The notes below the pieces were generated by a model. That model had not been told where the DNA came from and did not search any database. It was given only the letters and a program-made list of their open reading frames with translations. DNA of 4,189 bases from a virus. Taxonomy: Duplodnaviria; Heunggongvirae; Uroviricota; Caudoviricetes. The first letter of the stretch is position 1. Each line of letters begins with the position of its first letter. Of the stretch, positions 1-3,835 are shown piece after piece. The stretch is from positions 1-4,189 of IMG/VR virus record IMGVR_UViG_2663762627_000001. One strand, written 5' to 3'. Made by a program: the position numbers and the translations under genes.

Positions 1-231
1 GCCTTTGAGGTCGTGGTATGGATGACGGATGGCTGGCCGCTGTATGAATCCCGCCTGAAGGGAAAGCTGCACGTAATCAGCAAGCGTTACACTCAGCGCA
101 TTGAGCGACATAACCTGAATCTGAGACAACATCTGGCAAGGCTGGGACGGAAGTCACTGTCGTTCTCAAAATCGGTGGAGCTGCATGACAAAGTCATCGG
201 GCATTATCTGAACATAAAACACTATCAGTAA
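1..231 (+). CDS. insB: IS1 transposase InsB, C-terminal portion (5'-partial; stop TAA at 229-231)
   Basis: In-frame translation from position 1; the ORF track entry 13..231 begins at an internal GTG. Protein-level recognition of the InsB C-terminus. Confidence 0.9.
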
Positions 232-519: not shown

Positions 520-1059
520 TCATATTGCCCCCAGCATGGTGGTAACCATCGCCATCAATGGACCAGCCAGATCAGGATCCACACGAAACATCGACACAAT
601 GCCTTCACTCATCTCCTTCAGTTTCTGGTGGCGTGGTGCGTTGAGAATGACCGCCTGTTTTGCCTCGCTGAGCTCCTTTTCCATTTCAACCAGTCGAGCC
701 ATGAAGCTATCCTGCTCAACCAGGTGGCCGCGATATTTCAGCGGTAGTACTGCCAGAATTGCTGGAGTCAGTTCACGCACGTTATTTCGGTATTTTTCAG
801 AATCGAATTTGTTATCGAGAAAGCGGAACAGCTTCTGGCGTGCACGACTGACATCATCAGGAAAATCGATAGTGCCGCCGCCCTGTGCTCGATACTCATT
901 CACAATGAGTGCGGCAACGACATCCTGATTATCTACAGCCGACCAGGCGCGGACGGCATCACGGATTTTTTCGTGGCCTGGCACCTGTTTTATTTGAGAA
1001 CGATTTATCACCGCAGTCGGGATAAATCCGCTAGTCTGTTGGTATGTAATTGGTTGCAT
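520..1059 (-). CDS. CII-position regulatory protein, probably YdaT-family (179 aa from the ATG at 1059; the ORF track's 190-aa form starts at 1092)
   Basis: Long minus-strand ORF directly downstream of cro and upstream of the O-like gene. The ATG at 1059-1057 has an AAGGA ribosome-binding site 9 nt upstream; the ATG at 1092 has none. Motifs EYRAQGGG and LTPAILAVLP are reminiscent of YdaT-family proteins (family assignment from memory, not verified). Its stop overlaps the upstream in-frame ATG of the O frame in an ATGA arrangement (520-523). Confidence 0.6.
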   Translation of the reverse strand: MQPITYQQTSGFIPTAVINRSQIKQVPGHEKIRDAVRAWSAVDNQDVVAALIVNEYRAQGGGTIDFPDDVSRARQKLFRFLDNKFDSEKYRNNVRELTPAILAVLPLKYRGHLVEQDSFMARLVEMEKELSEAKQAVILNAPRHQKLKEMSEGIVSMFRVDPDLAGPLMAMVTTMLGAI

Positions 1060-1082
1060 AATTGATTCCTTTAGTCTGAATT

Positions 1083-1128
1083 GACTGTTCATCAGTCTGT
1101 TAAGTTGATTGCTTATTGTTAAAGAACG
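1083..1128 (-). promoter_or_regulatory. Candidate nutR-like site: boxA-like element plus a small hairpin, between cro and the CII-position gene
   Basis: Minus strand 1128->1115 reads CGTTCTTTAACAAT, one mismatch from the rrn/lambdoid boxA core (T/C)GCTCTTTAACAA as I recall it. 17 nt further downstream, GACTG-ATGAA-CAGTC (1097->1083) forms a 5-bp stem with a 5-nt loop, the same geometry as boxB. Position matches lambda nutR. Confidence 0.35.
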
Positions 1129-1140
1129 TGAAAAGGAAAT

Positions 1141-1371
1141 TTAAGCTGCATTCTTTTCGGTATGTGGAAACAACTTCGGAAGATCCGGGCGAATCTGGTA
1201 TGCCTTAACTACCCCGCCAGTAGCCGTAACAATGCTGCCGACATGTTCAGGGGATACCTTTGCTTTGTTGTGTAGCCACTTATAGACGGCCTGCTGTGAA
1301 ACTTCGCAGGCATCGCCCAGTTTCTTTTGTGAACCGACGATATTGATCGCGGTTTTGATTGCTGGGTTCAT
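1141..1371 (-). CDS. cro: Cro-like HTH repressor (76 aa)
   Basis: Minus-strand ORF divergent from the repressor gene, with a GGAGG ribosome-binding site 5 nt upstream of the ATG (1371-1369). The product MNPAIKTAINIVGSQKKLGDACEVSQQAVYKWLHNKAKV…VKAYQIRPDLPKLFPHTEK has the same pattern as lambda Cro (…[20 protein letters not shown]…VYAEEVKPFPSNKK). Confidence 0.85.
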   Translation of the reverse strand: MNPAIKTAINIVGSQKKLGDACEVSQQAVYKWLHNKAKVSPEHVGSIVTATGGVVKAYQIRPDLPKLFPHTEKNAA

Positions 1372-1475: not shown

Positions 1476-2165
1476 ATGAAAACAACACTCTCAGAAAGAC
1501 TTAAAGAAGCCAGATTAGCGCGAGGCCTTACACAAAAGGCGCTTGGGGATATGGTCGGGGTTAGCCAGGCTGCCATTCAGAAAATCGAAACAGGGAAAGC
1601 TAACCAAACAACTAAAATCGTGGAGATCGCAAACGCTTTAGGTGTGCGCGCAGAATGGTTATCTTCTGGCGTTGGAAATATGTCAGACAGTACCGTGCAA
1701 CCAATACAATCAACTGTCAGCCATTCAAAATACTTCAAGATTGACGTTCTTGATATAGAAGTCAGTGCCGGACCGGGTGTCATCAACCGTGAGTTTGTGG
1801 AAGTTCTACGCTCGGTTGAGTACTCGTTTGACGATGCTCGTCACATGTTCGATGGCAGGAAGGCGGAAAATATCCGCATCATTAACGTGCGCGGTGACAG
1901 CATGTCAGGGACGATCGAACCAGGTGACCTGCTGTTCGTTGATATCACTGTTAAATCTTTCGACGGTGATGGCATCTATGCGTTTCTGTACGACGACACT
2001 GCCCATGTAAAACGTCTTCAAATGATGAAGGATAAGCTGCTGGTTATCTCTGATAACAAGAGCTACTCGCCGTGGGACCCGATCGAGAAAGACGAGATGA
2101 ACCGGGTGTTCATATTCGGTAAGGTCATTGGAAGCATGCCGCAGACGTACAGGAAGCATGGTTAA
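1476..2165 (+). CDS. cI: CI-like prophage repressor (N-terminal HTH, C-terminal S24/LexA-type autoprotease domain), 229 aa
   Basis: The HTH segment LSERLKEARLARGLTQKALGDMVGVSQAAIQKIETGK begins right after the ATG at 1476. The C-terminal half carries a candidate Ala-Gly cleavage site (VSAGPG), the catalytic serine motif GDSM and the lysine motif HVKRL. The ORF track's upstream start at 1410 would run through the operators, so 1476 is preferred. Stop TAA at 2163-2165. Confidence 0.9.
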   Translation: MKTTLSERLKEARLARGLTQKALGDMVGVSQAAIQKIETGKANQTTKIVEIANALGVRAEWLSSGVGNMSDSTVQPIQSTVSHSKYFKIDVLDIEVSAGPGVINREFVEVLRSVEYSFDDARHMFDGRKAENIRIINVRGDSMSGTIEPGDLLFVDITVKSFDGDGIYAFLYDDTAHVKRLQMMKDKLLVISDNKSYSPWDPIEKDEMNRVFIFGKVIGSMPQTYRKHG

Positions 2166-2340
2166 TTTATCTACGACTTAAGGGAGCGAAGGTTAAGGTT
2201 TATACCACTCGGATTAGATATTGCACTAAATTCTCTATAAGAACGCCAAATCTGTTTGCATATTTCAGTAAATATTCTCGTTGTTAGCTGAAATTTGTTG
2301 CTACTGTCAGCAAAATGTCCCCCTATCTCGTAGCGGTTTT

Positions 2341-2386
2341 TATTTCGAATCATTATGTTAAGATGTTTCTGATTATAATGAATGGA
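2341..2386 (+). promoter_or_regulatory. Candidate promoter for the lipoprotein gene
   Basis: Perfect TATAAT at 2374-2379 with TG at 2370-2371, 16 bp upstream of the ATG at 2395, in an AT-rich intergenic tract. No good -35 hexamer; the leader would be very short. Confidence 0.3.
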
Positions 2387-2394
2387 AACATAAA

Positions 2395-2775
2395 ATGAGA
2401 AAAATCCTAATCGCTGCCATGATGGCATCTCTATTGGCTGGGTGTGCTTCTTCAGGCAACCAGCAACTCAAAAATGAAACTGAAATTAGTGTCCAGTCTA
2501 AACTTCAGGAAGGTAAAACAACCAAGAATGAGGTTAAATCTTACTTTGGTTCTCCTGATGCTGTTTCATATACTGACAGTGGAAACGAGATCTGGAAGTA
2601 CGCCTTTGCAAAAGTAAAAGTTAATGGCACCACTTTTATTCCATTCTATGGATTATTCCATAATGGAACGAACGGTACGAAAAAAGAACTTACTATTCTT
2701 TTTAACGATGACACGATTAAGAAATACACAATGTCAGAAACCCAAATAAACTCGAAATCAGGTTGGGCTGACTGA
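2395..2775 (+). CDS. Outer-membrane lipoprotein of unknown function (126 aa), in the rexAB-equivalent slot; fold possibly BamE/SmpA-OmlA-like
   Basis: Signal peptide MRKILIAAMMASLLAG followed by lipobox LAGC; the residue after the Cys is Ala, consistent with outer-membrane sorting. Mature region has a pattern resembling BamE: GKTTKNEV…FGSPD…EIWKY…ELTILFNDD versus BamE GMTQQQV…LGTP…NTWFY…TLTLTFNSS. Codon usage is clearly more AT-rich than flanking genes, and the gene has its own terminator. Confidence 0.85.
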   Translation: MRKILIAAMMASLLAGCASSGNQQLKNETEISVQSKLQEGKTTKNEVKSYFGSPDAVSYTDSGNEIWKYAFAKVKVNGTTFIPFYGLFHNGTNGTKKELTILFNDDTIKKYTMSETQINSKSGWAD

Positions 2776-2783
2776 TAATCATA

Positions 2784-2810
2784 CCCGGCAACCGCGCCGG
2801 GTTTTCTTTT
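2784..2810 (+). terminator. Rho-independent terminator after the lipoprotein gene
   Basis: Stem CCCGGC (2784-2789) / GCCGGG (2796-2801) with loop AACCGC, followed by TTTTCTTTT (2802-2810). Confidence 0.8.
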
Positions 2811-2904
2811 CCTCCCCCTCATAACTCATACCGTCCAAAAAACCACCACACCTCACTTCAGTTATCGCTATGCGATGCAAGTCACAAAATAAATCCATCC
2901 TAAA

Positions 2905-2985
2905 TACAACCAGTTATATTTAAAACAACCGACAAAACAACTTTTGTTGTTGACGATAAAACAACTATAGTTTTAAATAAATTCA
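2905..2985 (+). promoter_or_regulatory. pL/OL-like region: candidate promoter and repeated operator-like motifs
   Basis: TTGACG (2950-2955), a 17-bp spacer, then TTAAAT (2973-2978). The ACAACC-type motif seen in OR recurs here: TACAACCA (2905-2912), AAAACAACC (2922-2930), the inverted repeat AACAAC-TTTT-GTTGTT (2936-2951) overlapping the -35, and AAAACAAC (2958-2965). Confidence 0.4.
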
Positions 2986-3034
2986 TCGCAACGACACAAC
3001 GATACGGTAACCACCTGTTTCACCGTTGCGATGA
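2983..3034. repeat. Perfect 11-bp inverted repeat with a 30-bp spacer in the pL leader
   Basis: TCATCGCAACG (2983-2993) and its exact reverse complement CGTTGCGATGA (3024-3034), immediately downstream of the candidate pL -10. Confidence 0.7.
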
Positions 3035-3255
3035 CCGCTTAGATCCGCAGTTTGAATTTCAGCAGGCTTCGGGGAGTGCGAGGGGTGAAACGGACGCGTG
3101 AACGTCGGTGTGACCAGCTGAAATCAACACAACACTTTATACCTCAGTCGCTTCAACGAGGCGGCTTAGTTATGACAACCGGCGGCCATCCACCGCCTGA
3201 ATACGCGCAGAAGTCTCTATATGTTCAGCAGCCCAGCTTACGGGCAGGAGTTTTT

Positions 3256-3462
3256 ATGGTTCATCAACATTACGGAACGCAGACCGTTAATCGCGGCGCG
3301 GTCATGCCAGGAATGCTGGTCAAACACAAAGATGGTACCTGGACTGCATCAGCTAATTTACGCGGGCGGCTTTATCTGCATCGCGGCATCGAGCGCACTT
3401 ATACCCGTGATTTGCTCGTAGAAGTTTTTCTCGACGGACGCGGTAACGGCCTGAATCACTAA
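3256..3462 (+). CDS. Hypothetical small protein (68 aa) in the N/kil position upstream of gam; may be the C-terminal part of a longer ORF
   Basis: ATG at 3256 has an AGGAG ribosome-binding site 5 nt upstream; stop TAA at 3460-3462. The same open frame extends upstream to a TTG at 3052, with a GTG at 3085 (GGGGAG 8 nt upstream) and an ATG at 3172 (GAGG upstream). Product MVHQHYGTQTVNRGAVMPGMLVKHKDGTWTASANLRGRLYLHRGIERTYTRDLLVEVFLDGRGNGLNH has no family I can recognise. Confidence 0.45.
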   Translation: MVHQHYGTQTVNRGAVMPGMLVKHKDGTWTASANLRGRLYLHRGIERTYTRDLLVEVFLDGRGNGLNH

Positions 3463-3538
3463 CCCCCCTTTCCTGTTTTCCTAATCAGCCTGGCATTTCG
3501 CGGGCGATATTTTCACAGCCATTTTCAGGAGTTCAGCC

Positions 3539-3835
3539 ATGAACGCTTATTACATTCAGGATCGTCTTGAGGCTCAGAGCTGGGCGCGTCACTACCAGCA
3601 GATCGCCCGTGAAGAGAAAGAGGCAGAACTGGCAGACGACATGGAAAAAGGCCTGCCCCAGCATTTGTTTGAATCGCTCTGCATCGATCATTTACAACGC
3701 TGCGGGGCCAGCAAAAAAGCCATTACCCGTGCATTTGATGACGATGTTGAGTTTCAGGAGCGCATGGCAGAACACATCCGGTACATGGTTGAAACCATTG
3801 CTCACCATCAGGTTGATATTGATTCAGAGGTATAA
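3539..3835 (+). CDS. gam: Gam, host RecBCD nuclease inhibitor (98-aa GamS form)
   Basis: Product [98 protein letters not shown] is near-identical to lambda Gam as recalled. AGGAG ribosome-binding site 8 nt upstream; stop TAA at 3833-3835. Confidence 0.95.

Follow-up and report, generated by a model that had tools for sequence, protein, structure and literature searches.

A conserved inverted repeat at the predicted pL start of a DLP12/Perceval-like prophage, a candidate 5'-terminal RNA hairpin upstream of kil

The DNA analyzed here (the window, 4,189 nucleotides in full) is the immunity region of a lambdoid prophage of the DLP12/Perceval-like kind without an N gene, and its nearest phages were PhiR26_1 (99%), Turner, 4A7, Lambda_4C10, and Perceval (genus Bievrevirus). 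Perceval is mapped as a DLP12-like phage with Q present and N absent from the annotation, and PHROG scans of its small early-left proteins matched no N family. The features of the window are collected in Table 1. On the plus strand, the terminator is followed by the operator cluster with pL and then by kil, gam, and a RecT/Bet gene. At the left end, the 3' end of an IS1 transposase gene (InsB) adjoins the truncated phage replication-O gene on the minus strand (window 1-231 and 242-523), and replication has probably been lost from the prophage. Between cI and pL, at the position of rexAB in lambda, lies a cargo hotspot (window 2166-2900; L003 1048-2649; L005 1273-2783; L008 936-2219). In the window its occupant is a BamE-like lipoprotein gene, in O55:H7 RM12579 it is a SIR2-family protein, a further strain has an MqsA-like antitoxin set there, and a Klebsiella phage carries RexAB.

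Table 1. Features of the window relevant to the pL leader
Feature	Position	Strand	Basis or remark
Replication-O fragment cut by IS1 end	1-231	-	Annotation of the window
YdaT/CII-like gene	520-1092	-	Annotation of the window
YdaS/Cro-like gene	1141-1371	-	Annotation of the window
S24-peptidase CI repressor gene	about 1476-2165	+	Annotation of the window
BamE-like lipoprotein cargo gene	2395-2775	+	Annotation of the window; followed by a terminator, 2783-2802
OL operator cluster, ACAAC-type half-sites	2900-2972	+	Overlaps pL; repeats D2, I1, I2, I4, I6
pL -35 hexamer, TTGACG	2950-2955	+	Direct reading of the sequence
pL -10 hexamer, TTAAAT	2973-2978	+	Direct reading; 17-bp spacer from the -35
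Inverted repeat, left arm	2983-2993	+	TCATCGCAACG; 2985-2993 (AUCGCAACG) is the predicted 5' strand of the RNA stem
Predicted transcription start (+1, A)	2985	+	Seventh base past the -10
Predicted hairpin loop	2994-3023	+	30 nt; sequence and length not kept in the O55 and WS1933D types
Inverted repeat, right arm	3024-3034	+	CGTTGCGATGA; 3024-3032 (CGUUGCGAU) is the predicted 3' strand of the RNA stem; nearly invariant in relatives
Untranslated leader of the kil-gam-bet operon	2985-3255	+	271 nt; site variation, indels
Alternative-pairing segments	3078-3112	+	CGAGGGGUGAA; GCGUGAACGUCGGUG; predicted to pair with 3011-3029 instead of the left arm; repeat I9, RNAalifold, MFE
C-rich, G-poor stretch	3120-3150	+	The 30 nt from 3120 contain 9 C and 2 G; mostly unpaired in predicted folds
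kil Shine-Dalgarno sequence, AGGAG	3246-3250	+	Direct reading; 5 nt before ATG 3256
kil, KilR-family FtsZ inhibitor, 68 aa	3256-3462	+	First gene of the pL operon; NF008465, phrog_294

The promoter scan missed the -10 hexamer of pL, since it demands A at position 2 of the hexamer. TTAAAT is kept as the -10 in a Klebsiella phage of the same operator type, and the pL of Perceval (TTGATA-17-TATTAT) was called independently by the consensus promoter scan. The geometry of a -35 hexamer, 17 bp, and a -10 hexamer was seen in other immunity types as well. From the position of the hexamers we infer a transcription start at A2985; the pL promoter of lambda has the same CAC|ATC start context. Motifs of the ACAACC/GGTTGT type were also present at the divergent cI/cro promoters (1380-1470). 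A second perfect inverted repeat (2917-2926 and 2970-2979; TATTTAAAAC and GTTTTAAATA, with 43 nt between the arms) encloses the pL operators together with the -10.

The predicted transcript begins with a long untranslated leader, a match to which was found in 2232 of 5426 complete E. coli genomes (about 41%). The NF008465 model aligned to residues 69-136 of a long open reading frame, that is, to the protein starting at ATG 3256, and PGAP annotates kil in relatives as 207-nt CDSs. Among 85 distinct relatives, the variable sites of the leader were distributed over the codon positions as 18/14/15, against 7/7/30 for the informative sites of kil, as befits a coding gene; a signal of codon bias in a first count of 11 sequences vanished with these 85. 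The leaders of relatives also carried indels of 5, 1, and 2 nt. Since there is no codon bias, indels are tolerated, and the homology to KilR begins at the Met of position 3256, the segment 2985-3255 is a 271-nt untranslated leader. It was conserved at least as well as kil, and its variability was no higher than that of the adjoining coding sequence. An N-like arginine-rich protein fused to Kil (136-aa open reading frame, 3052-3462) was rejected, as the frame showed no codon bias and was broken by indels and the KilR homology started at M69.

The deposited 139-aa "Kil" of Perceval (PERCE_41, L001 4258-4677) is over-extended at its 5' end; by the family model and the indels, the protein begins at the Met equivalent to window 3256. 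The 3' third of the leader (window 3136-3215; UAUGACAACCGGCGGCCAUCCACCGCC...GCGCAGAAGUCU) was also found upstream of kil in Klebsiella phage KO-TP1 (L007 2500-2560) and was conserved upstream of kil in HK225 (L006 2501-2640); indels that break the frame place this conservation at the DNA or RNA level and not at that of protein. Between kil and gam lies a weak terminator-like hairpin (3488-3505; GCCTGGCATTTCGCGGGC followed by GATATTTTCA), and region 3456-3540 had 98.8% identity in Stx phages that do carry N.

Two of the readings offered in the original prediction, a nutL equivalent and an attenuator, concern this leader directly. The element maps where lambda has nutL, after pL and before the first gene of the early-left operon, the leaders are similar in length (about 220-270 nt), and one leader frame, within the 3052-3462 open reading frame, can be read as the arginine-rich stretch RGVKRTRERR. 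That frame is noncoding, however, and is interrupted by the 5-nt insertion of relatives. Reading 2985-3255 by eye, we found neither a boxA (resembling CGCUCUUA; the nearest sequence was CGCUUAG) nor a boxB-type element, defined as a 5-bp stem with a 5-nt GNRA-like loop. No open reading frame for a cognate N antiterminator lies between pL and kil, where the leader is noncoding, and N was absent from the Perceval annotation and the PHROG scans; unlike in lambda, kil comes first. The attenuator fared no better, as a plus-strand scan of 2803-3487 gave no terminator-like site and no hairpin with a U tract is found in 2983-3255. A nutL-like site for an N-type antiterminator, or an intrinsic attenuator, is thus barely conceivable here.

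The repeat itself was as described originally: in a repeat search of the window and by direct reading, the two arms were complementary at 11 of 11 positions and separated by a spacer of 30 nt. Its placement just downstream of pL and at the start of the transcript held in part, as the repeat does lie at the predicted transcript start but overlaps +1 and does not follow it. Perfect inverted repeats of at least 11 bp with a loop of 3-60 nt occurred in 11 of 300 dinucleotide-preserving shuffles scored over the whole window (3.7%), and the 11-bp repeat is by itself unusual, neither extreme nor compelling. The predicted RNA fold of 2980-3040 had an energy of -19.2 kcal/mol (z = -4.1), which none of 200 shuffles equaled. 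With +1 at A2985, the outer pairs 2983/3034 and 2984/3033 fall upstream of the start and outside the predicted RNA, so that the stem has 9 bp (2985-2993 with 3024-3032). The outer 2-3 bp of the DNA repeat vary among immunity types, and the two outermost pairs are probably fortuitous.

The same arms were carried by at least four other promoter/operator types with unrelated operators, in agreement with the original statement that the repeat has nothing to do with the ACAACC operators. Blast matches from other immunity types began at window 2985/2986, which is the predicted +1. Behind all the -10 variants of the E. coli class (TTAAAT, TATTAT, TATTGT, and TATCAT, in four to five promoter/immunity types), 6 nt separated the end of the -10 from the first base of the stem. 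Klebsiella phage L008, which has the same operators as the window, lacks the repeat. An immunity (CI/Cro) operator was rejected on both of these grounds, the unrelated operators and the absence from L008. The broader idea of a DNA element acting on pL, either as spaced half-sites for a dimeric regulator, as had also been suggested, or as a cruciform, would accommodate the exactness of the repeat in the window, its overlap with +1, and the presence in the arms of CAAC/GTTG, the core of the half-site of the phage's operators. We regard this idea as highly improbable, since the arms are not immunity specific, the distance between them is 29, 30, or 38 bp in relatives and 9 nt in a probable homologue (see below), the outer 2-3 bp change with the immunity type, and no candidate protein is known.

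We then surveyed the variation of the stem over about 200 related loci, among which the 3' arm was nearly invariant and the perfect 11-bp form was a minority. The commonest 5' arm, AUCGCAACA (116 loci), allows 8 bp plus an A.C mismatch, and the second commonest, GUCGCAACA (51 loci), has a G.U pair at +1. Full pairing was found with the arm of the window type (12 loci) and in a variant whose 3' arm has U in place of C, so that pair 9 is A-U (4 loci). At 2993 the majority of loci have A, giving the 8 bp and the A.C mismatch, and pair 9 was seen as G-C, A.C, and A-U. The O55 type keeps AUUGCAUCG, with 8 of the 9 pairs and an unchanged register, while its loop had only 5 matches in the first 25 positions (counted on the alignment); by calculation, about 0.4% of random 9-mers would pair as well as the O55 arm in that register. 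In the WS1933D type the loop is 8 nt longer and the stem is retained, with A.C at pair 4. Two rare variants, at two loci each, had one further mismatch. Over the whole alignment 89.5% of the cells were paired, against 11-60% in slid controls. The inner-loop pairs predicted for the window variant were lost in most relatives. When the 5' segment of the O55 type was sought in other contexts for a native 3' partner, it was always attached to the same leader.

The original prediction had proposed RNA folding of the leader and covariation across relatives as a check, of which the first gave the stable local fold reported above and the second was null. Within the E. coli set the covariation was not significant, as 381 of 500 shuffles matched the observed score; only one pair was changed on both sides, and three pairs deviated solely by mismatches. 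The stem is therefore conserved rather than demonstrably covarying. Changes to G.U wobble pairs were discarded as proof of a plus-strand RNA, since an A.C mismatch reads as G.U on the opposite strand. The relatives were 95-99% identical, and recent shared ancestry of these prophages could account for part of the conservation of the arms. The stem might accordingly be a functionless relic kept at a mosaic joint in a young, widespread module, its perfect 11-bp form being a chance gain from an A-to-G substitution at 2993 and two coincidental flanking pairs. The null covariation, the A.C mismatch in most copies, the single variants with further mismatches, and the frequency of such repeats in shuffled windows all fit this explanation. 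It does not explain well why the arms are kept when the loop is replaced (O55) or expanded (WS1933D), why the register of the stem is constant with respect to four to five different promoters, why a related hairpin is found in other genera, or why the leader varies no more than the adjoining coding sequence. We consider a relic unlikely. An RNA stem-loop in the leader is the best of the readings proposed originally.

Beyond E. coli, the Kil-first prophages of Citrobacter, Enterobacter, Kluyvera, Silvania, and Pseudocitrobacter, together with 80 viral contigs, had different leaders, all of which open with cATC at the predicted +1. One of these distant classes begins AUCGACAAC-(9 nt)-GUUGUCAGG, with a hairpin AUCGACAAC-9 nt-GUUGUC, in prophages of Enterobacter, Silvania, and Kluyvera. 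It has AUCG, CAAC, and CACCGUUG in common with the E. coli hairpin, and an extra A in its 5' strand is matched by an extra U in its 3' strand. Judged by sequence, this hairpin is a probable homologue with a short loop. The 5' modules of classes B and C, of HK225/KO-TP1, and of Rac were different. A general rule, that the pL transcripts of Kil-first or N-less prophages begin base paired, was abandoned, as in thermodynamic predictions it failed for Rac, class C, HK225, L008, and even HK022 putL.

These other leaders have features of their own. The 5' module of class C, about 88 nt, occurs in other Enterobacteriaceae Kil-first prophages (L261, L229, L137, and other viral contigs; about 90 nt past the predicted pL +1). 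Its inner hairpin shows clear compensatory changes (UCCGG/CCGGA versus CCGAC/GUCGG), and the module looks like an undescribed structured RNA. The pL leaders of HK225 and KO-TP1 open with AUCGAAACGAAACAUCGA and contain a terminator-like hairpin plus U5 about 45-75 nt past +1 (L006 1245-1310; L007 1826-1895), which suggests early attenuation in this lineage. A block, GTTCCGCCAGCCTGGCGACAAGGGCAAA, lies ahead of the first pL gene in many relatives (L131-L137, L219-L298), and a similar one, GTTCCGCCACCCGGCGTTAAGGGG, ahead of ydaG of Rac (L299 3470-3500, minus strand).

In the RNA, the hairpin has a predicted competitor. The 3' arm with its upstream flank (CACCUGWUUCACCGUUGCG) can pair with GGGGUGAA (3083-3090) or GCGUGAACGUCGGUG (3097-3111), and this alternative fold is the RNAalifold consensus and is also present in the MFE folds of common variants. 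In each of the five variant types, transcripts of 60-100 nt had a predicted stem probability of 0.63-0.98; with 130 nt it dropped to 0.23 for the WS1933D type and to about 0.01 for the other four, and for the full leader it was 0.82 in the window, 0.74 in the WS1933D type, 0.07 in the commonest type, and 0.00 in the Perceval and O55 types. The 8-bp stem of the commonest variants had an energy of about -8 kcal/mol. When the first 8 nt were fixed and the remainder shuffled, none of 100 sequences paired them equally well in three of the five types (70 nt). Sequence variation and covariation did not separate the MFE model of the window from the alternative fold, and G3085A (13 distinct variants) disrupts a pair in both. 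By these models the hairpin would be expected to form first during transcription, and its persistence is uncertain. GUGAA(A)CGG and GUGAACGUCGG are the copies of a short direct repeat, both being complementary to UUCAC (window 3019-3029 with 3078-3112).

The two folds could constitute a switch, in which a hairpin and an anti-hairpin (UUCACCGUUGCG with GGGGUGAA or GCGUGAACGUCGGUG) would gate the access of Rho ahead of the toxic kil. Stretches rich in C would be exposed or hidden, so that Rho would stop leaky transcripts while those of full induction would pass. The C-rich part of the long untranslated leader is a possible Rho loading region, the predicted ensemble moves from the hairpin (stem probability at least 0.9 at 60-100 nt) to the alternative (about 0.01 at 130 nt) and partly back, the alternative is the consensus fold, and the homology to the O55 type starts at 3019, as does the alternative pairing. 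Rho reportedly silences kilR in the Rac prophage, which offers an analogy, but the Rac leader is not homologous to the present one. Moreover, covariation favors neither fold, G3085A breaks a pair in either model, and the energies of the folds differ by no more than the error of the folding model. Such a switch appears to us fairly unlikely.

The textbook example of early-gene control is the N/nut system of lambdoid phages, and to our knowledge the put RNA of HK022 is the only well-studied alternative to it that works without a phage protein. A put-like antitermination RNA, which would bind the polymerase and make it resist terminators and Rho over the early-left operon, would suit a phage without a recognizable N, a predicted structure starting at +1, and a terminator-like site ahead of traR/xis/int in Perceval (L001 7175-7189). 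In HK022, likewise a lambdoid phage without N, putL is a structured RNA within 3 nt of the pL start, pairs from A3, and acts without phage proteins (PMC9378689). A covariance model of putL and putR, of low power since it was built from 2 sequences, was run against the window, Perceval, Rac, and other leaders and matched HK022 alone at E values up to 10, and Blastn-short against the HK022 region gave no similarity to the leader. Neither the window nor 24 kb of Perceval showed a second, putR-like copy of the leader after pR, and the cro-cII spacer is only about 48 nt. The architecture also differs, a single 48-nt hairpin followed by larger domains standing against two stems in about 70 nt. An antiterminator of the put kind is, in our judgment, improbable.

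Other known classes were compared with the hairpin as well. A scan with Rfam 15 found nothing overlapping the plus strand of 2983-3255 at E values up to 10; Rfam has no put family, and the HK022 control was also negative, so this null is uninformative on put. With a stem of 8-11 bp, an RNase III site was rejected, as it needs about 20 bp or more of near-continuous duplex. The prophage sRNAs AgvB/AsxR and Pas concern other loci, and a text search of papers for the arm sequences returned unrelated matches only. KilS of Rac is an sRNA from the 5' untranslated region of kilR, 98 nt long and followed by a U tract, for which an independent promoter is possible (PMC8175672). It is a noncoding RNA that directly precedes a KilR-family gene of a lambdoid prophage, and it provides a positional precedent. 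The leader had no homology to KilS, the kilR leader, or ydaG, however, and the element described here would start at pL and has no terminator.

There remains the class of 5'-terminal stem-loops of the ompA 5' untranslated region type, which reportedly stabilize E. coli mRNAs. In such leaders, a 5' end free of unpaired nucleotides hinders RppH and the entry of RNase E. The prophage hairpin would resemble them in having a stem at, or a few nucleotides from, the predicted 5' end, a long untranslated leader, and a loop whose sequence is unimportant; counted from the predicted +1, the stem would begin about 0-2 nt from the 5' end in the four to five promoter contexts. It differs in that the start is a predicted one and in that the common variants have 8 bp only and a competing fold is predicted for them. 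Our preferred reading, to which we would give slightly less than an even chance, is that the repeat encodes an RNA hairpin comprising nucleotides 1-48 of the pL transcript, which would shield the 5' end or nucleate the folding of the leader. Transcription would begin at A2985, and the nonamer at +1 to +9 would pair with that at +40 to +48, leaving no single-stranded 5' tail. If formed in vivo, a paired 5' end of this kind would impede RppH and the 5'-end-dependent access of RNase E to the kil-gam-bet-exo mRNA. The hairpin would also be the first unit to fold cotranscriptionally in the 271-nt leader that ends at the kil ribosome-binding site, and the folding of that leader may control the expression of kil-gam-bet-exo.

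Considered in this way, the hairpin is a previously unannotated element of a conventional kind, and if it is only a 5' stabilizer, it would be an ordinary feature. It is more doubtful, and on the whole decidedly unlikely, that the hairpin and the rest of the leader represent a new class of cis-acting RNA that would control elongation without a phage protein in N-less DLP12/Perceval-like phages, whether by put-like antitermination or by a structure-gated switch, anti-Rho or Rho-attenuating, ahead of the toxic kil. Since N is absent, kil comes first, and a conserved leader with predicted structure begins at +1, this prophage group invites the question of how the expression of a toxic FtsZ inhibitor and of the recombination genes is timed and limited. 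The element is very common in E. coli, and any regulatory role that it may have would concern many strains.
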